Shown piece after piece: positions 39,409-56,080 of a DNA stretch of 64,000 nt (the first letter of the stretch is position 1; each line of letters begins with the position of its first letter). This DNA comes from Planctomycetota bacterium (GTDB taxonomy: Bacteria > Planctomycetota > UBA1135 > UBA2386), in contig CANMWZ010000001.1 in assembly GCA_947501605.1 (NCBI GenBank), positions 32,001 through 96,000 on the forward strand, in the 5' to 3' direction. A model generated the notes under the pieces. That model was not told the origin of the DNA, did not search any database, and saw only the letters and a list, made by a program, of their open reading frames with translations. Both the position numbers and the translations under genes were made by a program.

Positions 39409-40157
39409 TCCGCCAAGCCTCCACCGCGCTCTTCGCGAGCAGCCTCTTGCTCACGTCTTGTTCCACGACAGAGCGCGAACACACGCGGATCCGCGCCGAT
39501 GCGGCCTTTGGTGGCGGCAAGCTGAAGCACTCGACCAACGGCAGCGCCCTCGACGACTCCGCAACCGCGGCCTACTTCGCCTTCGGGGCAGAAGTCATCG
39601 GCAGGCAGAACCTAGGCGGCGGCGTGCGCTTCCAGACCGTGACCAGCGACGACGACCTCTTCCTGGGCGGCGGGGCAGGCACCCCAGCGCAGGCCTTCGA
39701 CAGCGAGCTGTTCTTGCATGGCACCGGCGTTCTGGGCACCGAGGACAACTCTTTCCCGATTCGCTTCGGACTGTTCTTCCGCAACTACACGCTGGAAGCC
39801 CAACCGACCGGCAACGACATCAACTGGTCCTCCTTCGGCCCTCGCGTGGAAGTCGCTCCCGACATCACGCTCGCCACGACGAACGCGCTCCGCTGGTCGC
39901 TCACGAGTGTGCTTGGCTTCGGCGCCGGAGTCACGACGATCGACACCTCGCCGGCGACGCAGGAGTGGGACACCACGATGGTGCAGGCCGATCTCGCGCT
40001 GGGCACGCGGCTGCAGTTGGAATCGCTGCGCCTCGACCTCGGCTGGATGTGGCGCGGCAGCAGATACGACGAAAGTGATGTCACTGCTTCCACCACGGTG
40101 CTCGAAGCGGACAGTACGTTCTCGGGCTTCACGTTCGGCCTCGGCGCGACCTTCTAG
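39405..40157 (+). CDS. Outer-membrane beta-barrel protein
   Basis: Signal/lipobox LTSC, amphipathic beta-strands, C-terminal GFTFGLGATF. Confidence 0.7.
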   Translation: MIRQASTALFASSLLLTSCSTTEREHTRIRADAAFGGGKLKHSTNGSALDDSATAAYFAFGAEVIGRQNLGGGVRFQTVTSDDDLFLGGGAGTPAQAFDSELFLHGTGVLGTEDNSFPIRFGLFFRNYTLEAQPTGNDINWSSFGPRVEVAPDITLATTNALRWSLTSVLGFGAGVTTIDTSPATQEWDTTMVQADLALGTRLQLESLRLDLGWMWRGSRYDESDVTASTTVLEADSTFSGFTFGLGATF

Positions 40158-40250
40158 CAGAGCCCCGCAGCATCGCCCGATGGCACCGCCCTCTCGCCGT
40201 GCGAACAGTCGCCTCGCGGGTCGCAGGCCACCACGAGCCGATACTGGTGC

Positions 40251-41240
40251 GTGACGCAGCCACCTGAGGCCGACGACTGGGAACCGCTGTCGAACGAGCA
40301 GTTGTTCGCCGACGACAGGTCCTTGCCTGCCAGCCCACCACCGCTCGTCGCCAAGCCGCTGCCACCAAAGCCGCGCGTGGCCAAGCTGCCGCACCCCGTG
40401 TTGCCGCCGGTGACGCCTGCCGCTAGCGCAGTCCGCGCCAATCCCGATGCCGAGCAGCGGGCCCTGCACGAACTGAAGCAACGACTCGCAACCGCCAAGA
40501 AGCGCATGGCCCCGTTGCACGCAGCGTTTGCCAGTGCGACGCGACGGCTGGCCTACGAACCGCCGCTCCCGGTCGAAGCGGCAACCAAGGCCGACGCGCC
40601 CGACGACGACCGCAGTCTCGGAATCGAGTTCGAAGACGGTCACGACCCCCGCGAAGACCAATCGTGGTTCCGCGCGTTGCCGGCGACGGAACAGCAGCGG
40701 CTCGGCACCGCGTGGCGGGCGCAGAAGAACCAGTACTCGGGCGAGAGAGCCCAGTTCTGCTACGACGTGCGCTACGCCGCGATCTGCGGCGCCGGCGTGT
40801 TCGTGTTCGTTGCGATCCTGACGGCCATCGCCTGCGCCGACGGCGGTCGAAGTCTGCAACTCGTGGTCGCCGGTGCGTTCGCCGCCGCCATCGCCCGCGT
40901 GCTCCGCGGTGGACGCTTCGTCTTCGCCATCGCCGGCTTCGCGACCTACGCCCTCGTGATGCAAGATGCCCTGCTGAAGTCGCAGCTGCTGTGGTACGTG
41001 TGGTCGGTCGCCGGCTTCGCGACAGCGCTGATCGGCATCGATCGCGAGATGCGTCAGGCGGGCGGCTTTGGTGGCCGTTGCCTAGTGAGCACCAAGCCGA
41101 CCGAACCGGCAATCGCCGCCGGAAGCCAGAGCCACAGAGCTTCTGACAGCAGCACGTCGACACCCCACGAGGAGAAGAACGCGCTGACGCCGAGCGGTGC
41201 GACCGCGATCGGACGGAACGAGAAGAACAACCGTTCCTGA
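40251..41240 (+). CDS. Hypothetical membrane protein
   Basis: Pro-rich soluble N-terminus and about 4 C-terminal TM segments. Confidence 0.6.
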   Translation: MTQPPEADDWEPLSNEQLFADDRSLPASPPPLVAKPLPPKPRVAKLPHPVLPPVTPAASAVRANPDAEQRALHELKQRLATAKKRMAPLHAAFASATRRLAYEPPLPVEAATKADAPDDDRSLGIEFEDGHDPREDQSWFRALPATEQQRLGTAWRAQKNQYSGERAQFCYDVRYAAICGAGVFVFVAILTAIACADGGRSLQLVVAGAFAAAIARVLRGGRFVFAIAGFATYALVMQDALLKSQLLWYVWSVAGFATALIGIDREMRQAGGFGGRCLVSTKPTEPAIAAGSQSHRASDSSTSTPHEEKNALTPSGATAIGRNEKNNRS

Positions 41241-41624: not shown

Positions 41625-42650
41625 ATGCGCGCTCCCTCAACTCCGCTCGCCATTCTTCTGGCTGCCCTGCTGTGGTCCACGGCACGCACGCAGACAACAC
41701 CGGCAACCGCGCCGCTTGCTCCGGCCACAGCCGTGCGGTTGGGCGTCTTCTTCTGGCACGACTCTCCCAACGACCAGATCACGTTTGCCGGCATCGAGAA
41801 CGGCTTTCAGGCCGCTGGCCGCGCGGTTCTGTTCGTCGAACGCCGCGCCAACGGCGACCGCGCGCGCGCGCAGCTCGCGTTGACTGAGTTGCGCGCCGCG
41901 GGCTGTCGCCTTTTGTTCGCCATGGGCACGCAAGCGGCGCTGCTGGCGCAGGAGCACGTGCCCGAGATCCCGCTCGTCTTCACTGCGGTCGCCAATCCTG
42001 TCGCCTCGGGAATCACCGCTGCGTGGACCGGCTCAGGCACTTCGGTCGCGGGCGCCAGTTACTGGATCGGGCCGGCGACTCTGGTGCCCGTGTTTCGCCT
42101 CGCAGTGCCCGGCCTGCAGCGCCTGGGCATGTTGCGCTCCGAGACCTCAGGGGTCGTAAGCCGCGCGGAACTCGAAGCGATGCGGGCGTGGATCCGCACG
42201 ACGCCGGGCACGGCGCTGCAGGTAGTCGAAGCAATCGCGCAGAACGACGATGATGTCGAACGCGCCGTCGCCGCCCTGCTGCAGCAAGGCGTGCAAGCGA
42301 TCTGGATCCCGAACGACTTCACCATCTACCAAAATCTGCATCTTGTAACGAAGCAGGCCACCGCCGCCCGCGTGCCGCTGGTCGCCACGGCGCTGGCCGC
42401 GGCGCGCAACGACGCCATCCTCGGGGCCACGGTGGACTTCGAGCTGCACGGCCGTCGCACCGCCGCGCTCGCGCTGCGCATCCTCGACGGCGAAGAGCCA
42501 GGAGCGCTGCCGGTCGACACGATGCATGGCTTCCGCATCCTCGTCAACGTCGACGCTGCGCGCCGAGCTGGTATCGAAGTGCCGCTGTCCTTGCTCGTGT
42601 TGGCCGACGAGTTGATCGCCGAGGAGACAACCGATGACCGCCCCCGCTGA
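41625..42650 (+). CDS. ABC_sub_bind family periplasmic binding protein
   Basis: Signal peptide; AMGTQAA, IPLVFTAVANP, AIWIPND, GRRTAALALRILDGEEPG, VNVDAARRAGI; overlaps the kinase start. Confidence 0.82.
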   Translation: MRAPSTPLAILLAALLWSTARTQTTPATAPLAPATAVRLGVFFWHDSPNDQITFAGIENGFQAAGRAVLFVERRANGDRARAQLALTELRAAGCRLLFAMGTQAALLAQEHVPEIPLVFTAVANPVASGITAAWTGSGTSVAGASYWIGPATLVPVFRLAVPGLQRLGMLRSETSGVVSRAELEAMRAWIRTTPGTALQVVEAIAQNDDDVERAVAALLQQGVQAIWIPNDFTIYQNLHLVTKQATAARVPLVATALAAARNDAILGATVDFELHGRRTAALALRILDGEEPGALPVDTMHGFRILVNVDAARRAGIEVPLSLLVLADELIAEETTDDRPR

Positions 42651-44091
42651 TCTCACACCGCGGGGCACGCACCTCGCCCAGAAGTTGTTGTTCGCCGTGC
42701 TGGCGTTGTCCGTGCTGCTGCTGGTTGTCTTGTGGAGCTTTGTCGGGCCATCGCTCTCGACTTCGTTCCGCGACCGCAGCGATGCACTCGTGCAACACAG
42801 CATCACGGCGATGCGCGAACTGGCGACGCGTCACGCCACGCAACATCGCGATCTGCAGAAGGAACTCGTCGGCCACACCACCGACGCGCGGCGACGGGCG
42901 CTGCTCGACCTGCCGTTTTCGTTGTACCGCGAGCCCGAACAACTCCGCGCCGCGATCGAACGCGACGACCAAGACCGCGCCGAGCGCGTCCACCGCAACC
43001 TAGCTGTGTTGTCCCTCGAGACCGAGCGTCGCGCTGGCACCCAGATCCAAGCCGTGCTCGAGGACCTCCAGTACGAACAGGAGCGGCTGGCCGAGACCTT
43101 TGCCGTGCAGTTGCGCACGATGCACGCCGAACTCTGTGCGCTGTTTCTCGCGGCAGCAGTGGTCGTGCTGGGTCTTGGCCTGCACCGCCTCGTCGTGCGC
43201 CCGGTGCAGCAGCTCCGTGCCGCCACCCGCCGCGTCGCCGCTGGTGACCTCGCAACCTCGGTCTCGGTGCAGAGCCAAGACGAGATCGGCGCCCTGGCGC
43301 AGGACTTCTCGACGATGCTGCAGCAACTGCGGTCGTCGCGCAGCGCCCTCGCGGACCTCAACACCAACCTGGAAGCCCAGGTGGCCCAGAAGACGCACGA
43401 ACTCGCCCAGGCGGCAAAGATGGCTTCGCTCGGCACCCTCGCCGGCGGCCTCGCGCACGAGTTTCACAATTTGATCGGCGGGATCCGTGGTTGTGCCCGA
43501 GACGTGCGCGCCGACGAGACCGATGCGGCCACACAAGAGACCCTCGACGTCATCCTGCGCGCGACCGACCGCGCCACTGCGATCGTCCATCAGCTGCAGC
43601 GCTTCGCCAAGCAGGACAAACGCCAGTTTGCACGCATGGCACTCGACCAAGTTGCCGCGGACGCGCTGCTCCTGCTCGAACCAGAGGCTCGCCGCCGCAG
43701 GGTCACGGTGCACCGCTCGCTCGACGCGAACTTGCCGGTGCTTGGCGACGAAGACGCACTGCACCAAGTCGTCGTCAACCTTGTGACCAATGCACTACAG
43801 GCGATGCCGCACGGGGGCGAACTGCGCGTGCACGGTCGCATCGACGGCGACCGCGTCGAGCTGCTCGTGGCTGACACCGGGTGTGGCATCGACGCAGCCG
43901 ACATGCCGCGCATCTTCGAGCCGTTCTTCACGCGCCGCGCCGACGCCCAAGATCCGCTGCAGCGCGGGACCGGACTGGGACTGTCCGTGACCTACGGCAT
44001 CGTCGAGGCGCATGGCGGTTCGATCGCGGTGCAAAGCACGGTCTCGATGGGTTCCACGTTCACGCTCCGCGTGCCACTGGCGACGAGTTGA
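42634..44091 (+). CDS. Sensor histidine kinase (TM-HAMP-HisKA-HATPase)
   Basis: HAMP DEIGALA; H-box LAHEFHN; NLVTNA; DTGCGI; IFEPFFT; GTGLGL. Confidence 0.95.
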   Translation: MTAPADLTPRGTHLAQKLLFAVLALSVLLLVVLWSFVGPSLSTSFRDRSDALVQHSITAMRELATRHATQHRDLQKELVGHTTDARRRALLDLPFSLYREPEQLRAAIERDDQDRAERVHRNLAVLSLETERRAGTQIQAVLEDLQYEQERLAETFAVQLRTMHAELCALFLAAAVVVLGLGLHRLVVRPVQQLRAATRRVAAGDLATSVSVQSQDEIGALAQDFSTMLQQLRSSRSALADLNTNLEAQVAQKTHELAQAAKMASLGTLAGGLAHEFHNLIGGIRGCARDVRADETDAATQETLDVILRATDRATAIVHQLQRFAKQDKRQFARMALDQVAADALLLLEPEARRRRVTVHRSLDANLPVLGDEDALHQVVVNLVTNALQAMPHGGELRVHGRIDGDRVELLVADTGCGIDAADMPRIFEPFFTRRADAQDPLQRGTGLGLSVTYGIVEAHGGSIAVQSTVSMGSTFTLRVPLATS

Positions 44092-44235
44092 GCCGCCGCC
44101 ACAGAGCCGCCGCTTTTGCCGACGCGGGCATTGGCTCGACGTGGTTTCCCAGTGGACTTCGAGGCCGGCTGCAGCCGCTGGCGCTTTCAAAAAACTCCTT
44201 CTAGAGTCGGCGCCTCACCGAACCGTCGAGGTCCC

Positions 44236-44685
44236 ATGCACCCATCGTTCCGCCTCTCGTTCGTCGCCGCTCTTGTCCTCGCCGCATGCTCGTCCAACAC
44301 GCCCGACCCGTCGCCGACATCGCCCTCGGCGACGAAGCCGCTGGCGCCGTCGCTACCCAAAGATCTGAAGGCTGGCATGAAGGCCATCGAGGAACCATGG
44401 AAGGTGCTCGAAGAGGGCCAGAAGCAGAGCGAGGGTCTGGACCTTGCCGCGATGGCCACTGCCGCCGACGCCTGTGCGTTTGCGATGCACCTCGCCTACG
44501 ACCCGTATGAGGACAAGGAAGTGCCCAACTTCGCGCAGTTCGCGCGCGAGGCCGAAGCGGCGCTGCAGAAGATGGCCGCGGCAGCGCGCGCCGGTCGCGC
44601 CGCAGCCGTGCGCGAACTCGGCAAGAGCTTGCAGGAACAACATTGCGCTCGCTGCCATGACGCCGTCGAGGAAGCGCGCGGCTGA
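44236..44685 (+). CDS. Monoheme cytochrome c lipoprotein (class II, c'/c556-like)
   Basis: Lipobox LAAC; helical; C-terminal CARCH. Confidence 0.75.
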   Translation: MHPSFRLSFVAALVLAACSSNTPDPSPTSPSATKPLAPSLPKDLKAGMKAIEEPWKVLEEGQKQSEGLDLAAMATAADACAFAMHLAYDPYEDKEVPNFAQFAREAEAALQKMAAAARAGRAAAVRELGKSLQEQHCARCHDAVEEARG

Positions 44686-44937
44686 GCTGGCAACACGGCG
44701 CTCGCGATGCGCCGCCCTGGGCGAACTGCATGCCGGCGGCGCAACGCTGCAGCGCGGCCGCAGCGTGCAGCCACGCACTGTGCCGCAAGCGGCCATCTCG
44801 CACGACCACCTGTCGCATCGGTACGACACCGCAGTCGATGCGCGGAACAAGCGCGCCCCGCCATCGTGGCGCGGCCGGTCGCGGGCCGCCTGCTTCAGCT
44901 TCCGCGGCGCGGCGGAGCGGTTAGGCTCCGCGGCCCG

Positions 44938-46377
44938 ATGACCAGCGCCCCGCCCGCCTTGCCCGCAGTCCTCGTCGTCGATGACGAGGAGACGATGCGA
45001 CACTTCCTGTCGCGGGGGCTGAAACGCCTCGGCTTCGAGGTCGAGACGGCAGTCGATGGCCAAGCGGCACTCGACACGCTGGCACAGCGGCGCTTTGCGG
45101 CCGTCGCCCTCGATCTACGCATGCCAGGGCTTGACGGTCTCGCCGTGCTGGCACGGATCAAGGCGCTCGACCCGAGCGTGATCGTGCTGCTGATGACGGC
45201 ACACGGCAACGTCGCCCATGCCGTCGAGGCGATGAAGCTTGGCGCTGCCGACTTCTTGCAGAAGCCGTTCGAACTCGACGAGTTGCGACTCCGCCTCGAG
45301 CGGGCGCTGGCGCTGCAGGATGTGCTCCGCGACAACGAGGAACTGCGGCGCAGCGTCGACCGGCCCGTGGGCCCGGATCTCGTCACCAACAGTGCGGCCA
45401 TGCGCGCCCTGCAGTCCGAGATCTCGCTGCTCGCGAAGAGCCGCGCGACCGTGCTCCTGACCGGCGAGTCCGGCACCGGCAAGACGCTGCTCGCGCGCGC
45501 ACTGCACCAGAGCTCGCCGCAGAAAGATGGTCCGTTCGTCGTCGTCAACTGCCCGGCGATTCCGGAGACGCTGTTTGAATCGACGCTGTTCGGGCACGAG
45601 GCCGGCGCCTTCACCGGGGCGCTGCAACAGAAGGCAGGCCTGTGCGCGCGCGCGGAGGGCGGCACGTTGTTCTTCGACGAGCTGGCCGAACTCAGCCTCG
45701 CGGCACAAGCGAAGCTGGAGCGCTTCCTGCAAGATCGCGAGTTCACCCCGCTCGGTGGCAGCAAGCCGCTGACCGCAACGCTGCGTGTGCTGGCAGCGAC
45801 CAACCGCGACCTGGAAGCGATGGCGCAGCAGGGCACCTTTCGGCCCGAACTGCTGTGGCGGCTCAAGGTCGTCCAACTGCGAGTGCCGTCGCTGCGCCAA
45901 CGCCGCGAGGACATCCCGATGCTCGTGCTGCGGCGGCTGGCGAGTCTGCGGGCGCACTCGGGGCGAGGCCCGCAGACCATGACCGCCGAGGCTTTGGCAG
46001 CCATTTCGGCCTACGACTGGCCCGGCAACGTTCGCGAACTGGAGAACCTGACCGAACGCATGACCGTGATGGCCGGCGATCGCGACCTGCTCGGCAGCGG
46101 GGACCTCCCAGCCGAGATTCGCGGGCTCGCACCGCTCGACGACCCCGGTGACTACGAAGCAGCGCGGCGGCGGTTTGATCAAGCCTACTTCAGTTCCCTG
46201 CTGGTCCGGGCTGGCGGCAACGTCACCGAAGCGGCCCGGCTCGGCGGTCTGTCGCGCGGCCATCTGCACCGACGGCTGCGCGAACTCCAGATCGAGGCCG
46301 GTGCAGCTCGGCACCTGGGACTCCCCTCGATGGAAAGCCCGTCGAGCGACACCGCTGCCGACCCGGCGCGCGAATAG
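44938..46377 (+). CDS. Sigma-54-dependent response regulator (NtrC family)
   Basis: Receiver VVDDE/LDLRMP/KP; GESGTGKT; GAFTGA; FFDE; WPGNVREL; Fis-type HTH. Confidence 0.95.
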   Translation: MTSAPPALPAVLVVDDEETMRHFLSRGLKRLGFEVETAVDGQAALDTLAQRRFAAVALDLRMPGLDGLAVLARIKALDPSVIVLLMTAHGNVAHAVEAMKLGAADFLQKPFELDELRLRLERALALQDVLRDNEELRRSVDRPVGPDLVTNSAAMRALQSEISLLAKSRATVLLTGESGTGKTLLARALHQSSPQKDGPFVVVNCPAIPETLFESTLFGHEAGAFTGALQQKAGLCARAEGGTLFFDELAELSLAAQAKLERFLQDREFTPLGGSKPLTATLRVLAATNRDLEAMAQQGTFRPELLWRLKVVQLRVPSLRQRREDIPMLVLRRLASLRAHSGRGPQTMTAEALAAISAYDWPGNVRELENLTERMTVMAGDRDLLGSGDLPAEIRGLAPLDDPGDYEAARRRFDQAYFSSLLVRAGGNVTEAARLGGLSRGHLHRRLRELQIEAGAARHLGLPSMESPSSDTAADPARE

Positions 46378-46408
46378 CACCCCACCGTTCGCCGCGTGAC
46401 TTCGGCAG

Positions 46409-46424
46409 CGGCACACCCATTGCT
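46409..46424 (+). promoter_or_regulatory. Putative sigma-54 -24/-12 promoter
   Basis: CGGCAC-ACCCA-TTGCT has exact GG-N10-GC spacing and a near-consensus match to TGGCAC-N5-TTGC; ends 14 bp before ATG 46439, directly after the activator gene. Confidence 0.7.
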
Positions 46425-46438
46425 CAGGGCCGAGCCTC

Positions 46439-47425
46439 ATGCGCCACAAGACCCCTCGATTCCGGCCGTCCGCACCGCCAGCGCTGCTGCTGGGCCTTGT
46501 TCTGGTCGGGTGCGCCGCCGCAGGCAAGCAGGCCGAACTGACGGCTCCCCCGATCGCGCACTCCGACCAGCCGCTGGTGCTGCCCGGGATCGAGTCCAAG
46601 AAGGCGGCAGACCTCCCCGGCCTCCACAATGTGGTCGCCTACGCCGACGGTCTCTTGAGCGGCGCAGTGCCCGAGGGCGAGGCGGGGTTCGCGTCGCTGC
46701 AGGCCTTGGGGATCCACACCGTGGTCTCGGTCGACGGCGCTAGGCCCGACGTCGAGACCGCCACGCGCCACGGCATCCGCTACATCCACCTGCCGATCAG
46801 CTACGACACGGTGCCCGAGCTGCGGGCCCTGCAGCTGGCGCAGGTCGTCACCAACACCGAGGGCACGCTCTATGTGCACTGCCATCACGGCAAGCACCGC
46901 AGCGCCGCCGCGGTCGCCACCGCCGCCGTCACCGCCGGCCGGACGACGCCAACCGCCGCCGCCGAGCGCATGAAGATCTCCGGCACGACCCCCGCCTACA
47001 CCGGCTTGTGGTCCGCCGTTCGTAACGCTCGACCTGCCCCGCCCGCCGCCCTCGAGTGCGACCTCGCCACGCTGCCCTCGGTCGCGACGGTCAGTGGCAT
47101 GGTCGCGACAATGGCCGAACTCGACCTCGTCTTCGACCTGGTGAAGATCGCGAAGGAGAATCAATGGCAGGCGCCGTCCTTCCATCCCGACCTCGTCGCG
47201 CCGAAGGAGACGAGCCGCATGCGCGACCTGTTCTCGCAACTGCGGCACGACAAGGACTCGCTACTCCTCAGCGCTGACTACCAGGAGCGACTCCTGCGCG
47301 TGATCGACGAAACCACCAAACTCGACACCGCGGTTCGCGACGGGGATGCTGCTGCGGCCAACACGTGGTTCGACGCAGTCGGCAAGAGCTGCAAGGAATG
47401 CCACAAACCCTACCGGGACCAGTAA
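46439..47425 (+). CDS. Lipoprotein fusing a CX5R (PTP/DSP-like) domain with a C-terminal cytochrome c'-like domain
   Basis: Lipobox LVGC; VHCHHGKHRS P-loop (46877-46903); CKECH (47390-47404) at the end of a helical bundle. Confidence 0.82.
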   Translation: MRHKTPRFRPSAPPALLLGLVLVGCAAAGKQAELTAPPIAHSDQPLVLPGIESKKAADLPGLHNVVAYADGLLSGAVPEGEAGFASLQALGIHTVVSVDGARPDVETATRHGIRYIHLPISYDTVPELRALQLAQVVTNTEGTLYVHCHHGKHRSAAAVATAAVTAGRTTPTAAAERMKISGTTPAYTGLWSAVRNARPAPPAALECDLATLPSVATVSGMVATMAELDLVFDLVKIAKENQWQAPSFHPDLVAPKETSRMRDLFSQLRHDKDSLLLSADYQERLLRVIDETTKLDTAVRDGDAAAANTWFDAVGKSCKECHKPYRDQ

Positions 47426-47435
47426 GCGGATACCC

Positions 47436-48473
47436 ATGCGCCAAGCCCACACCTCTGCGTTCGTGCTCGCCACCCTCGTCCTCCTCAGTTTCTCCAGCTG
47501 CACTCGCGACCCAGCACCGTCTGGCCCGACGATCTACTGTTCGCTCGATGAACAGTTCAGCCGACCGCTGATCGAGCAGTTCGCCAAGGAGCTCGGAGTC
47601 ACGATTCAGGCCCGCTACGACACCGAAGCGGCCAAGACCGTCGGCCTCGTCAGTGCGATCCGCGAGGAGCGCGGCCATCCGCGCGCCTCGGTGTTCTGGA
47701 ACAACGAACTCGCGCACACCGTGAGCCTTGCGCAAGAGGGACTGCTCGAGCCTTACGTGTCCGCAAACGCTGCCGATGTTCCGGCGCAGTTCCGCGACCC
47801 CAATGGCTGTTGGACTGGGTTCGCCGCAAGAGCCCGGATCCTGGTGGTCAACACCCAACTGTTGCCGGATCGCAAGGACTGGCCGACGAGCTACAAGGAC
47901 CTGACGGATCCCAAGTGGAAGGGGCGGTGCGCCGTCGCGCGCCCGTTGACGGGAACGACGCTCACGCACTTCACGGCGCTGAAGAAGGCGCTCGGCGACG
48001 AGGCCTTCGAGCAGTTCTTCCAAGGCATGTTGGCCAACGACGTCAAGTTCTTGGCCAGCAACAGCGCCACTCTGCGTGAGACCGCGGCCGGCAGCGTGGC
48101 GTGGGCCTTCAGCGACACGGACGACTTCCATGTCGGCAAGTTGCGCGGCCAACCGATCGCTTGCGTGTTCCCGGACCAGGGTGCGGGCGAACTCGGCACG
48201 ATGCTGATCCCGAACTCGGTTGGTTTGGTCAAGGGCGGCCCGGACCAAGCCAACGCCAAGAAGCTGATCGACAAGATCCTCGCGCTCTCGACCGAAGGGC
48301 TGTTGGCCGCCGCAGAGAGCGCGCAGATCCCGCTTCGAGCCTCGGTAGATGGGCCGGGAGACGCCGACATCCTGCCGCTATCCGGCTTCCGCGCGATGGC
48401 GTGGGACATCGAATGGACGGCGCAGAACCTCTCGCGTTGCAACCAGGACTTCGGCAAGCGCTTCGGCCTTTGA
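47436..48473 (+). CDS. ABC substrate-binding lipoprotein, FbpA/AfuA-like
   Basis: Lipobox FSSC; WTGFAARAR, DLTDPKWKG, VFPDQG, AKKLID. Confidence 0.85.
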   Translation: MRQAHTSAFVLATLVLLSFSSCTRDPAPSGPTIYCSLDEQFSRPLIEQFAKELGVTIQARYDTEAAKTVGLVSAIREERGHPRASVFWNNELAHTVSLAQEGLLEPYVSANAADVPAQFRDPNGCWTGFAARARILVVNTQLLPDRKDWPTSYKDLTDPKWKGRCAVARPLTGTTLTHFTALKKALGDEAFEQFFQGMLANDVKFLASNSATLRETAAGSVAWAFSDTDDFHVGKLRGQPIACVFPDQGAGELGTMLIPNSVGLVKGGPDQANAKKLIDKILALSTEGLLAAAESAQIPLRASVDGPGDADILPLSGFRAMAWDIEWTAQNLSRCNQDFGKRFGL

Positions 48474-48502
48474 GTCCGCTCCGATCCTGACCCGGACTGA
48501 CC

Positions 48503-50131
48503 ATGATGTCCCGCACCGGCAGACACGGCCTCGTCGCAGAACTCGGGGCCCGCACGCCGATTTGGATTGCCGGCGCCTTCCTGGTCGTGTTCGTAGCGAT
48601 CCCGCTGCTGCTGCTGCTGTGGCAGACCGTCGCGTCGCCGGGCGGCCTGTCGCTGAGCGCGTGGCGGGAACTGCTGGCTGACGAGCGGGATGTCCAGCGC
48701 CTATTCGCGTCGTTGCGCCTCGGGCTCGCGGCAATGGCGGTCTCGGTGGCGCTCGGACTCGGGCACACTTGGTGCTCGCTCGGCCGCGACCTTCCGGGTG
48801 GCGCTTGGCTCGCCCCTCTCGGCATTGCCCCACTCGTGGTGCCGCCGATCTTCGTCGCGATGGGCTTTGCCGACCTGATGCCGGTCTCGGGCTTCTGGCC
48901 CTGCGCGCTGCTCCTCGGTGTTGCCCACGCCCCCTTCGTCGCGGTACTCGCCGCTCGCGGACTGCGCGCCGTCGACGGCCGCGGCTACGAGTCGGCACTG
49001 CTGCTCCGTGGACGCGGGCGCGCCGAACTGTGGCTTGCACGCGCGATCCTGCCCGAGCTGCTTGCCGGCTGCCTGCTCGCCTTCTTGTTCACCGTCGCCG
49101 AACACGGCGTGCCCGAGTTCTTGACCGTCAAGGGCAAGACATGGCACACCTATGCTGAGGGCATCTACTCACGCTGGACGCGCCGAGCAACAGGCGTGAC
49201 CTTCGCCGACCAGCAGAGTCCGATCATCGCCTCGGTGCCGTTGGTTGCAGCATTGCTGACCATGCTCTGGCTGACGCTGCGGCTGCGGGCCCACGCCCAG
49301 GACCGCGCCGTACAGCAACCGCTGCCGCTGCGACCACTGGGTATCTGGCGCGTGCCCGCCTTGCTCGTGCCGGCGCTGTACCTCGGTGCCGGGCTCGTCA
49401 TGCCGATCGTGGTGCTGGTGCGGTGGACGCTCGGCTCGGCGCAGAAGGTCGACCCGATGTCGATCGCATTCGCGCAGAAGAGCTTCCAGAAGGCCATGGA
49501 CCAAGGGCTGCCGGACCTCATGCACTCCCTCTGGCTCGCCGCTGGCACAGCACTCGTCGTCTCGCTGCTGGCGTTGCCGCTGGCGCGCAGAGCGGGCCGC
49601 GGCAACCGCGCGTTGGAGGTACTCTGCGCGTTGCCACTGGCAGCGCCGGCAATCTTGTTGGGCATCGGCCTCGTGCTGACCTTCAACAGCGGGCCGCTCG
49701 CAGAACTGTTCGGCTTCTCCTTCTACGACGGCTGGGGGTTTGCTCTGTGCGGCTACGCGGCGCGCTTCCTGCCGTTTGCGGTGCTGACTTTGGCTGCACA
49801 GGTGCGCCGCGTTCCGATCGGCTCCGACGATGCCGCCCGCTTGCTGCCGCGCTCGCGCTTGGCTCGCGCCGTGTACATCCACCTGCCGCCGCTATTGCCG
49901 GCATCGTGGTCGGCAGCCGTGCTGGTGTTCGTGCTGGCGCTGCGCGAACTCGACCTCGCCGTGCTGTTGCCCGCCGCCAACGCAACGGCGGTCCGCCGCC
50001 TAGCAAACGCCGTGCACTTTCAGCACGAGGACTGGAGCGGTGTCATCGCGCTGCTCTTGCTCACTGCCGCTGTGCTGCTGCCCTTGCTCCCTTCCTTGAT
50101 CGCCGGCCGCCGGCTCCAGTCCCTCTCGTGA
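48503..50131 (+). CDS. ABC permease, FbpB/ThiP-like (two fused halves)
   Basis: About 12 TM segments; degenerate EAA motifs YESALLLRG and DDAARL; FVLALREL. Confidence 0.85.
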   Translation: MMSRTGRHGLVAELGARTPIWIAGAFLVVFVAIPLLLLLWQTVASPGGLSLSAWRELLADERDVQRLFASLRLGLAAMAVSVALGLGHTWCSLGRDLPGGAWLAPLGIAPLVVPPIFVAMGFADLMPVSGFWPCALLLGVAHAPFVAVLAARGLRAVDGRGYESALLLRGRGRAELWLARAILPELLAGCLLAFLFTVAEHGVPEFLTVKGKTWHTYAEGIYSRWTRRATGVTFADQQSPIIASVPLVAALLTMLWLTLRLRAHAQDRAVQQPLPLRPLGIWRVPALLVPALYLGAGLVMPIVVLVRWTLGSAQKVDPMSIAFAQKSFQKAMDQGLPDLMHSLWLAAGTALVVSLLALPLARRAGRGNRALEVLCALPLAAPAILLGIGLVLTFNSGPLAELFGFSFYDGWGFALCGYAARFLPFAVLTLAAQVRRVPIGSDDAARLLPRSRLARAVYIHLPPLLPASWSAAVLVFVLALRELDLAVLLPAANATAVRRLANAVHFQHEDWSGVIALLLLTAAVLLPLLPSLIAGRRLQSLS

Positions 50132-51171
50132 CCTCCAATAACGCTGTCGATGTGCAGGATCTCGTGCTCGAGCGGGGCAGTTTCCGCTTGGGTCCGTGCA
50201 CGTTCCGAACCGCTGCCGGTGGTCGCCTCGCGATCGTCGGACCGTCGGGCTCCGGCAAGACCACACTGCTGCGGTGCCTCGCCGGCCTCGAACGTAAGCA
50301 CTCGGGAACGATCCGCATCGGCGGCGAAGTCATGCACTCCGAGGACCAGGACGTTGCCCCCAACGCGCGCGGCATCGGGCTCGTGTTTCAGGACGGCGCA
50401 CTGTGGCCGCACATGACCGCTTTGCAGCATCTGCGCTTTGCGGCTCCACACCTGGACGAGCGCGCCGCCAAAGCGCTGCTCGATCGCGGCGGCCTCCTCG
50501 CACTCGTACACCGCAAGTCGGGGGCGATGTCCGGCGGCGAAGCGCAGCGCCTCGGGCTGCTTCGCGCCATCGCGGCAAATCCGCGGCTACTGCTGCTCGA
50601 CGAGCCGCTTCGCTCCGTTGACGTTCACCAGCGCGATTCCCTGGTGTTGCTGCTGCGGGCTTTGTGCGACGAACGAGCGCTCACCAGCATTCTCGTGACG
50701 CACGACCGCGACGAGGCCCTGGCCCTGGCCAACGATCTGGTCGTCATGCGCGACGGCCGCATCGTCGAGCACGGTGCGTCGAGTGCATTGCTGACTTCGC
50801 CCAAGACGGCCTTCACGGCCGCGTTCCTGGCTTCGGCGGCGTGCCTGCCGGTCGAAGACGGCGGCAAGGGCATGGCCGCCACACCGTTTGGGCCAATGCC
50901 ATGCACCGGCGATGCGCGCACGCTGCGGCTCGTGCTGATGCCCGGCGACGTGCAGGCGACGCCCGTGACCGACACCTCCGCCCGGAGCACTCCGCGCGGC
51001 ACCGTGATTGCCTGCTTGCCGCAGGGTTCTACGTTCGTCGTGCGCGTTGCGTTCGGCGATCAGATCCTCCCTGCGATGGCGACCGCGAGCATCCGCGCCG
51101 GCGACGCCGCCGAACTTCACCTACAACAGCCTGCGCGCCTTTTGCCGTGGGACGCCCCTCCCTCACCATGA
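50128..51171 (+). CDS. ABC ATP-binding protein, FbpC/PotA-like
   Basis: GPSGSGKT, VFQDGALWPHMT, MSGGEAQR, LLLDEP, VTHD; GTGA overlap. Confidence 0.92.
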   Translation: MTSNNAVDVQDLVLERGSFRLGPCTFRTAAGGRLAIVGPSGSGKTTLLRCLAGLERKHSGTIRIGGEVMHSEDQDVAPNARGIGLVFQDGALWPHMTALQHLRFAAPHLDERAAKALLDRGGLLALVHRKSGAMSGGEAQRLGLLRAIAANPRLLLLDEPLRSVDVHQRDSLVLLLRALCDERALTSILVTHDRDEALALANDLVVMRDGRIVEHGASSALLTSPKTAFTAAFLASAACLPVEDGGKGMAATPFGPMPCTGDARTLRLVLMPGDVQATPVTDTSARSTPRGTVIACLPQGSTFVVRVAFGDQILPAMATASIRAGDAAELHLQQPARLLPWDAPPSP

Positions 51172-52184
51172 ACCTGCCCACTCGCCTCGCCCTCGCCGCC
51201 GCCATCGTCGGCACGTTTGCGGCCGGCATCGCGTTCCTCTCCGGCTGCAACGTCCCGGCTCGAGCGGAATCGTCCCAGCGTTGGGAATCGGCGCGTCAGT
51301 GCCAGAGTTGTCATCCAGAAGCGTTCGCCGAGTGGCAGACATCGCACCACGGCATCGCCTTCACCAATCCCGAAGTGCGCGCCCTCAGCGACGACTTCCG
51401 ACGCGAAGAGTGCATGGACTGCCACCTGCCGCGACCGCTCGCGGTCACCGGCTTCGGCAAGCGCACGTTGCCGCGACGCACCCACTTCGATGAGGGCGTG
51501 AGCTGCATCAGTTGCCACCTTGGCGAGGACGGCGGCATCGTCGCTCGCAACAACCGCCCCGAGGTGCCGTGCAAGCCCAAACGCAGCGAGGCCTTCTTGT
51601 CGGTCGACGCGTGCATGAGTTGCCACAACCAGCACCAGACCACGGACCAGTGGCGCGCGAGCCACTACGCGGCCCAGGGCATCCACTGCACCAACTGCCA
51701 CATGCCCGAGGCAGATCGCAAGCGGCCGGACGGCACGATCCGCAAGGGCCGAAGCCACATCTATCCCGGCGCCCACGACAAGAGCATGTTGGCGAAGGCC
51801 GCTACGTTCACTGCCGAACGACAGGGCAACGAGTTGGTGCTGGCACTCGAAAACACCGGCGCCGGCCACAACTTCCCCACCGAGGAACGCCATCGCGCGG
51901 TCGACCTGGAGTACCAGTTCGAAGACACGACCGGTCCGATCGCTGGCCTTGGCACTGGCGGCGCCCCCGAGTGGAGCCGAGCGTGGCGGTTCCGTCAGCC
52001 CTACCGCGACGAACCCGGCGAGAACACGCAGTTGCCGGCTGGCAAGAAGCATGAAGTTCGCGTTGCGGCACCGGCCGGCGCCACGGCCGTCACGGTGCGG
52101 ATGTGGTATCGACTGACACCGATGTGCAACGATCTGGACCCCCGCAGCACGTTGCTCGAAGAACGCAAGTTGGAGTGGCAATGA
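51168..52184 (+). CDS. Pentaheme cytochrome c, probable lipoprotein
   Basis: CQSCH, CMDCH, CISCH, CMSCH, CTNCH; LSGC lipobox; C-terminal beta domain after AGHNFPT; ATGA overlap. Confidence 0.9.
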   Translation: MNLPTRLALAAAIVGTFAAGIAFLSGCNVPARAESSQRWESARQCQSCHPEAFAEWQTSHHGIAFTNPEVRALSDDFRREECMDCHLPRPLAVTGFGKRTLPRRTHFDEGVSCISCHLGEDGGIVARNNRPEVPCKPKRSEAFLSVDACMSCHNQHQTTDQWRASHYAAQGIHCTNCHMPEADRKRPDGTIRKGRSHIYPGAHDKSMLAKAATFTAERQGNELVLALENTGAGHNFPTEERHRAVDLEYQFEDTTGPIAGLGTGGAPEWSRAWRFRQPYRDEPGENTQLPAGKKHEVRVAAPAGATAVTVRMWYRLTPMCNDLDPRSTLLEERKLEWQ

Positions 52185-53431
52185 GAACCTTGACGACGCT
52201 CTCCGTCCTCGTGGCGATTCTCGCCGCGTGCGGCGGCGAGCCGCAGAGCACCCACCCGAAGATGCCAGCGCTGCCACCGCTGCAACTGCTGCCGCGCATC
52301 GAGGAGTTGAAGCAGCTCGGCAGCCGGCCGGTAGTCAGCTTGTCCGACGTGCAACAGCGGGAGCTTCAGGAGTACGCCGACGTGGTGCTCGGTCTCACCG
52401 AGGCCGACGAACGCATCCAGAAGCGAGCCGAACGCAATCTGCTCGAAAGCGAACACGCGGGTGCCGTTCTCATTCCTGCGCTCAAGCACAAGGACGCCGC
52501 GGTGCGCTCGCGCGCGGCGTGGCTGCTCGGCCGCACGAGTCGATCGATTCTCCAGTTCCCCTTGTTGCTGCGCCTCAAGGACGAAACCGAGCCTGCGGTC
52601 ACGGTGTGGATCGCCGAGGCGCTGCATCGCCTCGGCAATGATGCTGGCCTTGTGTGGATCGACGCGGCGATCAACCACGAAGCCACCGCTCAAGAAGCGG
52701 GCACGGCAGCACTCAACCTGCTGCGAGAGGACGGCGCGACCTTGGCGGAGCAGCCGACGTGGCTGGAACTGCAGCAAGAGCTGCAACAGCGCACGAAGAC
52801 ATGGCGGCGCACCGGCATCGGCTCGCGCGACGGGGTCACCCCCCCGGACGCGGCGGAGGTTCTGGCCATCCTGTGCAAACACCTGTCGATCACCGAGAGC
52901 TTCTTGTTGCGGCCGATCGACGAAGCGAAGTTCGTCATCATCCGCAGCGGTGTGCTGGCGCTGCCGACGGTCGAGATCGCCATCACCGCTGCCGAACCCT
53001 ACCTGCGCTCCGTGGCGCTGCAGATCCTCGCCGAACTCGGACGCACGGCGAACCCGCTGTGCACCAAAACGCTGCCACTGCTCGAGGATCCGCTGACCGC
53101 GGCCTACGCCATGCGCGCGCTCGGCGAACTGGGTTGCAGTGACGCGACGGCGCACTTGGTGGCGCGCCTCTCGAGCCCGGACATCGAACTGCGCGCGAGC
53201 GCCGCCGGTGCGCTCGGCCTCTTTGGCGCCACCGAGCATGCGCCGGCACTGGCAGCCCTGATGGCCGACGCGAACGAGGCGATGGACGTCCGCGTGCAGT
53301 CGGCTTTCGCGTTGCGTTGCATCGGCGACAACAGCGCCGCAGTGGCGTTCCTCGCCGAGCGCAAACAGAAGGGCGACTACCACGCGCCGACACTGCAGAT
53401 CCTCGAAGACCGACTCACGCAGAATCGCTGA
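52181..53431 (+). CDS. HEAT-repeat lipoprotein
   Basis: Lipobox LAAC; repeats such as VRSRAAWLLG, LRASAAGALG, VRVQSAFAL; ATGA overlap. Confidence 0.82.
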   Translation: MRTLTTLSVLVAILAACGGEPQSTHPKMPALPPLQLLPRIEELKQLGSRPVVSLSDVQQRELQEYADVVLGLTEADERIQKRAERNLLESEHAGAVLIPALKHKDAAVRSRAAWLLGRTSRSILQFPLLLRLKDETEPAVTVWIAEALHRLGNDAGLVWIDAAINHEATAQEAGTAALNLLREDGATLAEQPTWLELQQELQQRTKTWRRTGIGSRDGVTPPDAAEVLAILCKHLSITESFLLRPIDEAKFVIIRSGVLALPTVEIAITAAEPYLRSVALQILAELGRTANPLCTKTLPLLEDPLTAAYAMRALGELGCSDATAHLVARLSSPDIELRASAAGALGLFGATEHAPALAALMADANEAMDVRVQSAFALRCIGDNSAAVAFLAERKQKGDYHAPTLQILEDRLTQNR

Positions 53432-53458: not shown

Positions 53459-54772
53459 CTACTTCGCGGTCGGGGTCGCGGCAGCAGCGGCGTTTGGCAC
53501 GCGACCGGGGACGGCAGCCTGCGGCATGCCGTAGCCCGGCGGTCGCGCCAACAGCACGACTTGGCCGTCGAAGCCGCTGCAGACCAGTTCGTCCGTCGTG
53601 TTGCGACCGTCGAGCTCCCCGACTGCGAGCCAGTGCCCCTGCTGCAGACTCTGCCAGAGCACCTCGGCCTGCCAACCACCGGCGGGACCTCGCGTGATCA
53701 GATGCACCGCCCGGCCGTAGCCGTAGACGGCGACCGCCTCGCGACCATCCTCATGGAAGCGACCGGCAGCGACACCGCGCAGGCCCTGTTCGCCAGCGAA
53801 GACCACCTCGCGGGCGACGCGCCCGTCGGCGCCCTTCTGGTAGCGCAGCAGTACGCCATCGTCACGCGTGGCATAGAGGACCGTGGCCTCCCCGTCGCGC
53901 GCGGGTCGCACGGCAAGTCGCCCCAGACCGCTGGTCTCGTGCGCGAGAACTTCGCTGCGCAGGACCCCGTTGTCCACCGACAGCGACAGGAGATCGCCAC
54001 TGCGTGACACTGCCAGGATCGCCGCCTCACCGGTGCGTGGATCGCGAAGCACCACGGTGTCGCGCACACGACCCACTACCTCCCCCAGCTTCTGCATGCG
54101 GAAGGCCCCAGCCTTGTCGGCGGCCGTCAACTGATAGACGGCGCCAGTGATGCCAAAGGCGAGCAGCTCACAACCCGCACGCTTGCTGTCGACGTCGGCG
54201 GCCAGGACGGCATGAAACTCCTCACCTGGAGCGTGACCGATCTCGACGCTCTGCAATTCGAACTTGCCGAACGGCAACGGCTGCAGCGTCAACTGGTGCA
54301 CGTTGCCACTCTTGCCGGCGGCGTAGAGCTCTTCACCGGGGATCCGTGGGTCGACGTCCGCCGGCGTGGTCGGCGCCAGCCACTGGCCATCGGGCGCGGT
54401 CCAACTCTCGCTCCACTTGCCGCTATAGACCGTCAACACCAACACGCGGCCCTTGTCGTCGGTCGCGATGACCTCGTTGTGACCGTAGACCGCGATGACC
54501 TTGGCCACCTGCAGGTACCACACGCCTGCGTCGCCGTTGTAGATCAACGTGCCACGCCAGTCGGGTGCAGTCGGGACTGGCACTTCGCCTTCGCTCGGAT
54601 GTTGCGGGAACGGCGCCTGTAGCACACCACTGGAGCTGGATTGGCCCGCATCGACAGCGGTCGTCGCCGCACTCTGGCTCGCAGTTGGCACCGCCGCAGT
54701 CGGTCGCGGTGCAGTGCACGAAGACGCGATCAGGGCGAAGGCGAAGATGCGGATCTGCGGGCGGATCGTCAT
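53459..54772 (-). CDS. Lipoprotein with FG-GAP/VCBS-like beta-propeller repeats
   Basis: Lipobox ASSC; repeats ADVDPRIPGEEL, ADVDSKRAGCEL, GELDGRNTTDEL. Confidence 0.68.
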   Translation of the reverse strand: MTIRPQIRIFAFALIASSCTAPRPTAAVPTASQSAATTAVDAGQSSSSGVLQAPFPQHPSEGEVPVPTAPDWRGTLIYNGDAGVWYLQVAKVIAVYGHNEVIATDDKGRVLVLTVYSGKWSESWTAPDGQWLAPTTPADVDPRIPGEELYAAGKSGNVHQLTLQPLPFGKFELQSVEIGHAPGEEFHAVLAADVDSKRAGCELLAFGITGAVYQLTAADKAGAFRMQKLGEVVGRVRDTVVLRDPRTGEAAILAVSRSGDLLSLSVDNGVLRSEVLAHETSGLGRLAVRPARDGEATVLYATRDDGVLLRYQKGADGRVAREVVFAGEQGLRGVAAGRFHEDGREAVAVYGYGRAVHLITRGPAGGWQAEVLWQSLQQGHWLAVGELDGRNTTDELVCSGFDGQVVLLARPPGYGMPQAAVPGRVPNAAAAATPTAK

Positions 54773-54925
54773 CGAATGCAAACGGACAGGGGCATGCGGC
54801 GCGGATGCGCGGTCGCGCACTCTAGCGAACACCGACAGGCGCCGCTCACCGCAGCAAGAGCCAAGTGGCCCACGGCATCGAGCCAGATGCGGCAAACGGC
54901 AACCTGCGCTGCGTTGGCCTACGGA

Positions 54926-56080
54926 TCAGCGGAATCCGTCGCCCGCAAGCACCGGCTCGCGCCGCGCGCCGACGTTCAAGCACAGCGACACGGCAAGCAG
55001 AGTCGCCAGTGCCGAACTGCCGCCGTAGCTCAGCAGCGGCATCGGCAGCCCCGTCGACGGCACGAGCCAGCCGCAGACGGCGACGTGGATCAGCGACTGA
55101 CTACCAATCCAGGCGGCGACGCCGACACACAGCAATCGGCCGAAGCGCTCGCGAGTGCGTTGCGCGATACGCAGCAAGCCGATCACCAGCGTGGCGTAGA
55201 GGCCCAGTACTCCCATGCTGCCAAACCACCCGATCTCCTCGCCGACTACCGCGAAGATGTAGTCTTCGCTGCGGTACGGCAAGAAGTCGTAGCGGTTCTG
55301 CGGCCCGTGCCCGAGACCGAAGCCAGTCATGCCGCCGCTGCCCATTGCGATCAATCCTTGCCACGGTTGGTACGCAGCCTCGCGCAGCAGGTCGCGCACG
55401 TCGCGCGAGTTCTCGTCCCAGTTCCAGTGCTGGGCCCATACGTCGACGCGCTGCTTTTGGTAGCCGTGCATCACCGAGAAGTAGGCGGCGATGAAGGCAA
55501 AGAAGCCGATCGAACACAGCACCGCCACGTGGCGGCCACGCGCACCGGCGGCGTAGCTCATCGCCAAGGTGATGGGAACGTAGACCAGGGTGCTGCCGAG
55601 ATCGGGTTGTACGAGCACGAGGCAGGCTGGGATGCCAGCGACGATGCCGGGCAGCAACAGGCTCGTGCTGAGCGATGCCCGCCGCTCAAAGCGCAGCAAC
55701 GCGGCGAGACCGATGACGGCGCCGAGCTTGGCAAACTCGCTGGGTTGGATCAGCAAACCCGGCAGTGAGTACCACCGCCGCGAGCCATTGATGACCGAAC
55801 CGAACAACGGCAGCCCGAGCAACGACAAAACCGCGCCGCCGTAGGCCAGCCACGCCAGCCGCATCGCGTGCACGTAGTGCGGCAGCAGACACAGCAGGCC
55901 GAAGCCAAGTCCGACGACCAGGAACAACGCTTGCTTGCCGAACTGCGGTGCGAAGCGAGGATCGTCCTGCGTGGTGGAACGCAGGAACGCGAGGCTGACG
56001 ACACAAATGGCGCAGGTGACGAGCCAGAGCCACCAGTCGACGTTTCGCAGCACTGCGAGCGGGTTCTTGTGCAGCCTCAT
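54926..56080 (-). CDS. rodA: Rod shape-determining SEDS glycosyltransferase RodA
   Basis: NGSRRW, IQPSEFAK, QPDLGS, AMGSGG, DYIFAVVGEEIG, TGLPMPLLSYGGSS. Confidence 0.93.
   Translation of the reverse strand: MRLHKNPLAVLRNVDWWLWLVTCAICVVSLAFLRSTTQDDPRFAPQFGKQALFLVVGLGFGLLCLLPHYVHAMRLAWLAYGGAVLSLLGLPLFGSVINGSRRWYSLPGLLIQPSEFAKLGAVIGLAALLRFERRASLSTSLLLPGIVAGIPACLVLVQPDLGSTLVYVPITLAMSYAAGARGRHVAVLCSIGFFAFIAAYFSVMHGYQKQRVDVWAQHWNWDENSRDVRDLLREAAYQPWQGLIAMGSGGMTGFGLGHGPQNRYDFLPYRSEDYIFAVVGEEIGWFGSMGVLGLYATLVIGLLRIAQRTRERFGRLLCVGVAAWIGSQSLIHVAVCGWLVPSTGLPMPLLSYGGSSALATLLAVSLCLNVGARREPVLAGDGFR

Follow-up and report, generated by a model that had tools for sequence, protein, structure and literature searches.

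A candidate sigma-54-associated redox-plus-import gene cluster in Planctomycetota

Comparison with described systems

ATP-binding cassette (ABC) importers of the FbpABC, HitABC, and FutABC type combine a periplasmic ferric-ion-binding protein with a fused two-half permease and an ATPase, and the iron ligands of FbpA include H9 and the tyrosine pair Y195/Y196. In Pseudomonas, FpvGH acts together with FpvCDEF in a periplasmic reductive release of iron, in which a membrane reductase and a siderophore take part and which feeds an ABC importer. Here, we analysed a window of 64,000 nt (the whole stretch of DNA under study, positions 32,001 to 96,000 of contig CANMWZ010000001.1 of a Planctomycetota bacterium), in which ten co-oriented genes occupy positions 41625..53431 of the forward (+) strand. 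Five of them, encoding a binding protein, a permease, an ATPase, a pentahaem cytochrome c, and a HEAT-repeat lipoprotein, constitute the conserved unit, which is a real and widespread redox-plus-import module built of known folds.

The importer of this unit resembles FbpABC, HitABC, and FutABC in fold and organization. Its binding lipoprotein (47436..48473) belongs to the FbpA-type fold and sequence family, and its nearest solved relatives are the ferric-ion binders FbpA, HitA, and FutA (E 2e-20 with the single sequence, 7e-31 with a profile). The permease gene (48503..50131) encodes an FbpB-type fusion of two BPD_transp_1 halves with approximately 11 hydrophobic segments, the ABC ATPase gene (50128..51171) follows it, and the RxR and Asn of the anion site are conserved. 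However, the metal ligands are exchanged. The positions of the FbpA Tyr-Tyr pair are taken by D229 and D230 (of 154 homologues, 148 and 147, respectively, have Asp there), that of the first-loop His is taken by D38 (Asp in 143 of the 154), and a D-x-E-x-x-K loop is inserted. Seven acidic residues, D38, D62, E64, E91, D227, D229, and D230, were kept in 143 to 152 of these distant homologues, and K67, R132, R134, T174, H178, and N209 were likewise conserved. This pattern suggests a hard-cation site together with a retained anion site; since the pocket is rich in Asp and Glu, a bare oxyanion is disfavoured as the cargo. The protein represents a carboxylate-rich subfamily of the FbpA fold that was not described before in the literature searched. 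The cluster further differs from the ferric importers in its sigma-54 promoter and in the operon shared with a pentahaem cytochrome and a HEAT protein, and the one homologue with expression data, that of Synechococcus PCC 7002, was, at low counts, induced neither by iron limitation nor by loss of Fur. FpvGH with FpvCDEF likewise has a periplasmic redox step that feeds an ABC importer, and no protein families common to the two systems were noticed (no dedicated comparison was made).

The AlphaFold2 model of the pentahaem cytochrome (51168..52184; pLDDT 83.6) matched one PDB entry over the full length, namely the penta-haem cytochrome c552 of Thermochromatium tepidum (5ZE8; Foldseek E 2.6e-15, TM 0.60). 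The two share the whole fold, with five haems and an Ig-like C-terminal stem (Z 20.1, rmsd 3.3, 272 aligned residues, 22% identity; runner-up Z 7.6). A single-sequence search of the PDB with the pentahaem gave no match; the relatives were found by profile and fold searches alone, and the profile search placed 5ZE8 at E 1e-16 and MccSep of Geobacter sulfurreducens at E 3e-4. MccSep (PDB 9WT8 and 9WT9) is described as a five-haem polysulfide reductase in which C239 ligates haem 2 and U325 lies in an Ig-stem loop, the activity being lost in the C239H and U325A/C variants (bioRxiv 10.1101/2025.11.18.688581). The window protein shares with MccSep the five CxxCH motifs, the Ig-like stem, and an AGH-x-x-P loop. 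Nevertheless, the overall similarity to MccSep is weak, the position of its selenocysteine (Sec325) is occupied by Glu240, and His156 is found where C239 would be expected. Compared with 5ZE8, for which the alignment shows a Cys in the segment from haem motif 4 to motif 5, the window family is devoid of this residue and possesses an N-terminal anchor, Cys135, an Arg cluster, and the tie to an ABC importer. An assignment of the pentahaem as MccSep was rejected: neither a Cys nor a TGA was found three residues after AGH-x-x-P in 43 homologues, and a Cys between motifs 4 and 5 occurred in 0 of the 43.

Residue conservation was examined in the same family. C135, which lies between haems 3 and 4, is Cys in 38 of 43 aligned homologues and His in the five most distant ones; H156, situated between haem 4 and haem 5, does not vary within the core set; and E240 is present in 35 of 35 orthologues and not kept in many distant members. 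Plausible distal haem ligands are C135, H61, H156, H197, and H234, of which one is a Cys, and elimination of the others indicates that C135 may face the exposed haem 1. Seven arginines (R99, R103, R195, R241, R243, R274, and R276) are invariant in all 35 orthologues, which fits an anion-binding surface. The lipobox Cys was found in just 1 of the 35, and the family is therefore more likely anchored to the membrane by its N-terminal helix than by a lipid. The source genome also contains a His-type pentahaem paralogue (G000 C1:125738-127162). In addition, approximately 20 open reading frames (ORFs) with at least three, and up to 23, CxxCH motifs were counted on its contigs C1, C18, and C21, suggesting extensive periplasmic or extracellular electron transfer.

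The last gene of the cluster (52181..53431) encodes the HEAT-repeat lipoprotein, a probable scaffold of the pentahaem. In one locus (L075), the pentahaem is fused in frame to the HEAT protein (747 aa, both domains full length). Four further pentahaem-HEAT fusion paralogues of approximately 870-900 aa were found (L104:11045-13681, L124:3518-6121, L125:3476-6166, and L126:7865-10474), one of which adjoins the core; the other three of the four lie away from ABC genes. Co-folding, a check named in the initial annotation of this DNA, scored the pentahaem-HEAT pair 0.52 versus 0.00 for the best control, with contacts agreeing by 92% between runs and a partner pLDDT of 89. In the benchmark, 116 of 157 solved complexes attained the required mark, as did 2 of 215 mismatched pairs; 18 of the 157 complexes and both passing mismatches fall at scores of 0.60 or lower, and the tool grades such a result as weak. 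Because the fusions supply prior evidence and the co-folding adds weak support, the HEAT lipoprotein likely binds or scaffolds the pentahaem. In another locus (L100), the HEAT gene is interrupted by a transposase-like ORF.

The conserved five-gene core

GTDB genomes were scanned with the importer binding protein, and 43 loci were obtained (set A). The order binding protein, permease, ATPase, pentahaem, and HEAT was intact in all 30 loci with at least 4.6 kb of downstream DNA. The upstream genes were judged on the 30 loci with at least 5.5 kb on that side, and the phosphatase-cytochrome fusion gene was present in nine of them and the kinase and activator genes in eight. The ten genes as one conserved system, which the initial annotation had treated as a single sense-process-import module, were rejected: nine genes (all except that for the monohaem cytochrome) stood together in 4 of the 43 loci, many of whose contigs are too short to judge, and the search for the monohaem gene in relatives was negative.

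A second set of 40 loci (set B) was collected around pentahaem matches and chosen for long contigs and family spread. The co-oriented core was seen in 17 of them, belonging to nine Planctomycetota families; two loci were rearranged, 13 had the ATPase-pentahaem pair only, and eight had no nearby ATPase gene. The ATPase gene adjoined the pentahaem gene in 30 of the 40 loci, across many families. In the genomes with split genes, orthologues of the binding protein and the permease were present elsewhere in 9/9 examined. Since the order is intact, the core is co-oriented across families, and the split parts are kept elsewhere in the genome, the five-gene core is the conserved system. The co-location in other genomes that the initial annotation had expected was therefore borne out for the core by the neighbourhood check. 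The pairs lacking permease and binding protein were those of L108, L110, L112, L113, L115, L116, L118, L120, L128-L131, and L136; in the inspected cases, genes of housekeeping type surround them, and HEAT or TPR genes are among the neighbours.

When 251 genomes from the phylum were searched, 137 matched the pentahaem profile at E 1e-8 and 93 did so at E 1e-45 or better (strong matches); the binding-protein profile had matches in 154 at E 1e-60. The binding protein was found in 85 of the 93 genomes with a strong pentahaem match versus 69 of the other 158, in a hand tally that counts related genomes separately though kin are not independent. The homologues of the cluster proteins are from Planctomycetota according to their source records, and near-identical DNA occurs in freshwater and freshwater-sediment runs of two studies. 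Contigs of four RNA runs were considered as a sign of expression and set aside, as X1 and X2 cover 30/30 bins evenly, in a DNA-like manner. Literature searches, with most subscription papers outside their reach, returned no description of the cluster, of a chromate link, of the binding-protein variant, or of the fusion, in line with the previous statement that no characterised pathway has the same composition.

Several genes recur in front of the core. A second cytochrome gene, of the four-haem C554 type, lies just 5' of it in several families (L106:10323-11666, L107:10151-11455, L111:10072-11415, L114:10070-11152, and L123:2959-4095). In L100, a divergent gene for a TonB-dependent receptor (1259-4348) and a TonB C-terminal gene (9377-10408) precede it. 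The ExbB/ExbD genes upstream in L164 were set aside as evidence of uptake, since they are accompanied by VWA and TPR genes.

Homologues of the importer were also found in a metal context. Plasmid homologues with 35-43% identity lie inside chromate-resistance clusters of Sphingopyxis and Pedobacter, a Thiodictyon plasmid homologue precedes a ChrB-domain gene, and the homologue on Synechococcus plasmid pAQ7 has an unrelated context. A further homologue, in genome G207, has ChrB_C nearby. Importer homologues are thus in or beside chromate-resistance genes in 3/4 plasmid loci examined and in G207, and none of these chromate-context importers has an adjacent pentahaem. The neighbouring genes comprise chrB, chrA, SOD, ChrB_C, and DUF1259 (L151:5351-15048, L152:4594-12976, L150:13334-13792, and L145:4735-10455; four unrelated lineages). 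A general chromate link was rejected, for no ChrB_C was found in 25 neighbours scanned from 14 of 20 further loci, most neighbours being unscanned.

Promoter, regulatory genes, and accessory genes

Inspection of the window showed all ten ORFs to be present, and the Pfam calls agreed with the domains originally proposed. In gene order, the matches were ABC_sub_bind; HAMP/HisKA/HATPase; no family; receiver/Sigma54_activat/HTH_8; DSP-like plus Cytochrom_C_2; SBP_bac_6; BPD_transp_1; ABC_tran; Cytochrome_C554-like; and HEAT_2. The seven CxxCH motifs in three proteins reported earlier were recounted as 1 + 1 + 5, and a lipobox was found in five of the six exported proteins, the exception being the first binding protein. 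The overlapping junctions, described before as many, were recounted: with the start codons chosen in this analysis, four of nine junctions overlap (-17, -4, -4, and -4 nt), and the remainder are spaced by 10, 29, 61, 144, and 252 nt. The 4-nt overlaps include those between the ATPase, pentahaem, and HEAT genes. No sigma-70-like promoter or terminator signal was found above chance.

A sigma-54-type -24/-12 box with one mismatch, which had been noted before, lies at 46409-46423, 30 nt 5' of the start of the fusion gene. A lone match of this kind is weak evidence, as 104 such sites with at most two mismatches occur in the whole window versus a shuffle mean of 83. A box with at most one mismatch arose by chance in 9/5000 random 62-nt windows of the source genome. 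In front of the fusion gene of operon-type relatives, the box was found with at most one mismatch in 16/18 and with at most two in 18/18, at -27 to -42; its position is thus conserved. Within 150 nt of stand-alone fusion paralogues, it was found (at most one mismatch) in 8/20. At loci without the fusion, the 200 nt in front of the binding-protein gene contained a box of the same stringency in 14 of 27 cases, the other 13 falling below that mark. The source genome gave two rpoN-type matches, and the NtrC-type activator (44938..46377; receiver, AAA+ domain, and Fis helix-turn-helix (HTH)) carries GAFTGA at residue 223, as originally reported. The box, rpoN, and the GAFTGA activator, that is, the features of a sigma-54-dependent operon, are accordingly all present, and the proposed sigma-54 control is supported. 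The adjacent activator would likely drive this promoter; the activator has 18 tblastn matches in the source genome at E<1e-30, and the box persists at loci without an adjacent activator.

The first two genes encode an ABC_sub_bind (PF04392) periplasmic binding protein without lipobox (41625..42650; Pfam 129.6 bits) and a HAMP histidine kinase with two transmembrane helices and His275 (42634..44091). The ABC_sub_bind gene adjoins the kinase gene in relatives. In 5 of 11 further loci, from three distant families, a kinase gene and a gene for a short response regulator stand directly before the importer binding-protein gene, and an ABC_sub_bind-like gene was detected in four of these five. The five kinases scored 224-402 bits on the family profile versus 196 for the best other kinase of the source genome, and four of the five matched the N-terminal sensor region of the family kinase. 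The regulators at these loci lack an AAA+ domain; receiver plus Fis-type HTH regulators take the activator's place (L139:8036-8806, L140:6205-6963, L142:6240-6953, L144:6328-6999, and L146:8184-8954). The ABC_sub_bind protein is the probable sensor partner of the kinase. Because three distant families have kinase orthologues adjacent to the gene of the importer binding protein, the sensor-importer link claimed in the initial annotation is an old one; in one subclade, an insertion placed the fusion between the two.

The fusion lipoprotein (46439..47425) was modelled (pLDDT 92.5) as a dual-specificity phosphatase (DSP)-fold domain followed by a class II four-helix cytochrome. Its loop HCHHGKHR contains the CX5R motif noted previously (CHHGKHR, residue 148), and it has the CX5R P-loop on a DSP fold that marks Cys-based protein tyrosine phosphatases and DSPs. 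C148, H153, R154, M225, and the CxxCH (CKECH in the window) are invariant in 99/99 homologues, and D123, a candidate general acid that aligns with an Asp of TpbA, is kept in 71/99. The G-K-H-R stretch is the same as in AtPFA-DSP1, whose P-loop reads C150-K-R-G-K-H155-R and whose His155 is proposed as the base (PMC9038691). In the fold search with the phosphatase domain, TpbA, VHZ, Siw14, and DUF442 fell within approximately 1.5 Z units, the phosphatases and DUF442 being nearly tied. PF04273 (BLH_phosphatase/DUF442) was matched at E 0.001 by 47 of the 99 homologues and not by the window's protein, which scored 21 of 625 bits against NF040641.

The cytochrome domain matched 6R6N (Z 13.7, rmsd 2.4, 104 aligned), a class II four-helix protein with a C-terminal CxxCH. 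M225 is located in the first helix and suggests that the domain is an electron carrier with His/Met ligation, not a gas-binding cytochrome c'; such haem ligation in a class II-type fold is that of c556 and b562. The protein is most likely a periplasmic phosphohydrolase with a His/Met electron carrier; in view of the DUF442 matches, a role in sulfur transfer is a less likely alternative. Its two folds are shared with PFA-DSP, TpbA, and DUF442 proteins and with class II cytochromes c; unlike in these, both domains are here joined in one periplasmic lipoprotein, and no solved or described phosphatase-cytochrome fusion was found in structure and literature searches. The fusion gene precedes the importer in 9/30 loci, as given above, and is a stand-alone gene with varied neighbours in 20/38 relatives; it is a subclade add-on.

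The monohaem gene (44236..44685) encodes a class II, c'-like cytochrome lipoprotein with a CARCH motif and an atlas match to cytochrome c' clusters (score 0.93). No match was found in any related locus, and no CxxCH ORF occurred in 15 kinase-activator gaps. The gene is a local insertion and not a conserved member.

Around the cluster, the gene of a second ABC_sub_bind lipoprotein, a distant paralogue of the first protein of the cluster, lies 3.6 kb upstream (37084-38052); a gene for D-Ala-D-Ala dipeptidase precedes it, and a LemA/GIDE fusion comes next. Also upstream of the cluster are two co-oriented genes that match no Pfam family (39405-41240; 250 and 329 aa), an arrangement conserved in the same genus and in one other. 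Downstream, the cluster is bounded by a convergent FG-GAP-like gene and then by rodA and pbp2-like genes (53459-58701); genes of the FG-GAP type turn up repeatedly in the vicinity of the core and of other importer copies. A tRNA-Leu(TAA) gene is located at 13524-13611.

Candidate function and significance

We speculated that the cluster is a sigma-54-driven periplasmic unit for redox and then import, which would couple a redox step to the uptake of a hard metal cation and would differ from classical iron scavenging. We assign this reading a probability of roughly 0.4, and the same holds for its logic, a reductive metal uptake that is yet not a classical Fur-controlled FbpABC. The HEAT lipoprotein would hold the membrane-anchored pentahaem, which would bind an anionic metal complex or a metal oxyanion at its Arg-lined cleft and shift the oxidation state of the bound metal species, most likely by reduction, with the low potential supplied by a probable His/Cys haem. 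The FbpA-fold binding protein, with Asp/Glu in place of His/Tyr, would capture the cation thus set free, an oxygen-preferring one such as Mn, Fe, or some other hard metal, possibly together with a phosphate-type anion, and the permease and ATPase would import it. The upstream binding protein, kinase, and activator would set the expression. In this subclade, the fusion lipoprotein, which has its own sigma-54 promoter, would have been added ahead of the core, and a phosphate ligand may be what it hydrolyses. A more specific version, which we consider doubtful, is that the HEAT-scaffolded His/Cys pentahaem dismantles metal oxyanions or soluble metal-ligand complexes (e.g. Mn(III)- or Fe(III)-pyrophosphate) in the periplasm, after which the carboxylate-lined binding protein takes over the cation, the phosphatase-cytochrome destroying the ligand in this clade. 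Of the chemistries suggested in the initial annotation, 'metal redox' gives the best fit. Since the fusion precedes the importer in so few loci and often stands alone, oxyanion chemistry based on Cys cannot be what the core does.

Several observations weigh against redox-coupled metal import. In the 13 set B loci with the pair only, the pentahaem stays with the ATPase gene, away from the permease and binding protein, and in the 69 genomes in which the binding protein occurs without a strong pentahaem match the importer can work alone. Asp/Glu pockets in an FbpA-type fold can also hold amines or sugar hydroxyls. The haem ligands were assigned by sequence alignment only, and the cluster encodes no quinol dehydrogenase or other electron donor. 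FeoB is present in the source genome and in 223 of the 251 sampled genomes, so Fe(II) import is already covered; no complementary distribution with FeoB was seen. Moreover, iron starvation as the trigger is modestly opposed by the homologue of PCC 7002, which is neither iron- nor Fur-induced, at low counts. This pAQ7 gene, approximately 35% identical and without a pentahaem beside it, was equated with SYNPCC7002_G0113 by product name and gene order. Table S2 of PMC4628125 lists it at 0.26 in the fur mutant (p 0.0004) and at 0, 0.85, and 0.64 in three mutants under iron limitation, the counts of the region being low; siderophore genes of the same plasmid, G0019-G0023 and G0081, are listed there as up 39- to 139-fold and 83- to 332-fold.

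The same data bear on an iron-regulated ferric importer of the ordinary FbpABC/FutABC type that has redox genes as accessories. This reading is favoured by FbpA, HitA, and FutA as top PDB matches, by the 'iron(III) transport' label that the sources give to homologues, and by the TonB-dependent receptor and TonB genes upstream in L100. However, the Asp residues at the positions of the Tyr pair and the His ligand, the sigma-54 type of promoter, and the failure of the PCC 7002 homologue to rise in the fur mutant or under iron limitation in that table (PMC4628125) make it very improbable. A rival that is itself rather doubtful takes the cargo to be a phosphorylated organic compound or a phosphoanhydride; in the periplasm, the fusion would hydrolyse this compound or a precursor, and the cytochromes would carry out a phosphorus redox step or keep the catalytic Cys reduced. 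The binding protein has a PLP-binding protein and a putative aminoethylphosphonate-binding protein among its PDB relatives, the conserved T174, T175, N209, K67, R132, and R134 could form a phosphate site, and the P-loop of the fusion, with H153 in 99/99, matches that given for AtPFA-DSP1 (PMC9038691). Phosphonate models were also the best NCBIfam matches of all three ABC genes, but their scores were far under the cut-offs (78/310, 66/593, and 175/458 bits), and a PhnSTU aminoethylphosphonate importer was rejected on the missed equivalog cut-offs. Furthermore, the fusion is absent before the importer in 21/30 loci, ferric binders outrank phosphate-ester binders in the structure searches, and the invariant pentahaem and HEAT genes would be left unexplained.

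Sulfur or selenium redox would involve a TsdA/MccSep-like His/Cys haem enzyme and a DUF442-type sulfur transferase, the product being imported. The profile matches of the pentahaem to MccSep and to 5ZE8, from a purple sulfur bacterium, the additional conserved Cys135 as a possible catalytic haem ligand, the DUF442 relationship of 47/99 fusion homologues, and the near tie of DUF442 structures with phosphatases agree with it. In L147, the immediate surroundings of the core include TusA and DsrE genes; this is the only locus in which sulfur-gene neighbours were seen, however, and Glu240 at the Sec325 position, the missing Cys between haems 4 and 5 in 43/43 homologues, and an acidic pocket ill-suited to sulfur anions render it quite improbable. 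Somewhat better placed, though still unlikely, is a co-regulation without mechanical coupling, in which the importer, which perhaps also serves as a sensor via its binding protein, merely shares a sigma-54 operon with a respiratory pentahaem-HEAT pair. The importers lacking a strong pentahaem match (69/251 genomes), the three parts at separate loci in nine examined genomes, five genomes with the binding protein beside two-component genes and no permease, the approximately 20 multihaem ORFs of the source genome, and the fusion paralogues away from ABC genes in 3/4 loci are in accordance with it. It is countered by the invariant gene order in 30/30 loci, the 4-nt overlaps of the ATPase, pentahaem, and HEAT genes, the adjacent ATPase and pentahaem genes in 30/40 loci of many families, and the retention of the binding protein in 85/93 pentahaem genomes.

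The unit occurs frequently in a large phylum whose members are mostly uncultured: of the 251 genomes sampled, 93 gave a strong pentahaem match and 154 have the binding protein. It comprises three subfamilies that had no characterised member in the searches run: the carboxylate-lined FbpA-fold protein, the pentahaem with altered ligands, and the phosphatase-cytochrome fusion. Proteins of the first subfamily are routinely annotated as iron binders, and the identity of their ligand would correct many annotations. The arrangement suggests an undescribed chemical change of a nutrient, most likely a metal, just before its uptake. Identifying that ligand would also tell whether ABC uptake can include multihaem cytochromes as dedicated components, which is relevant to the cycling of metals and phosphorus in fresh waters and in sediments. 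If metal complexes are indeed dismantled in this way, more than one third of the sampled Planctomycetota genomes would have a previously unknown route of metal acquisition.

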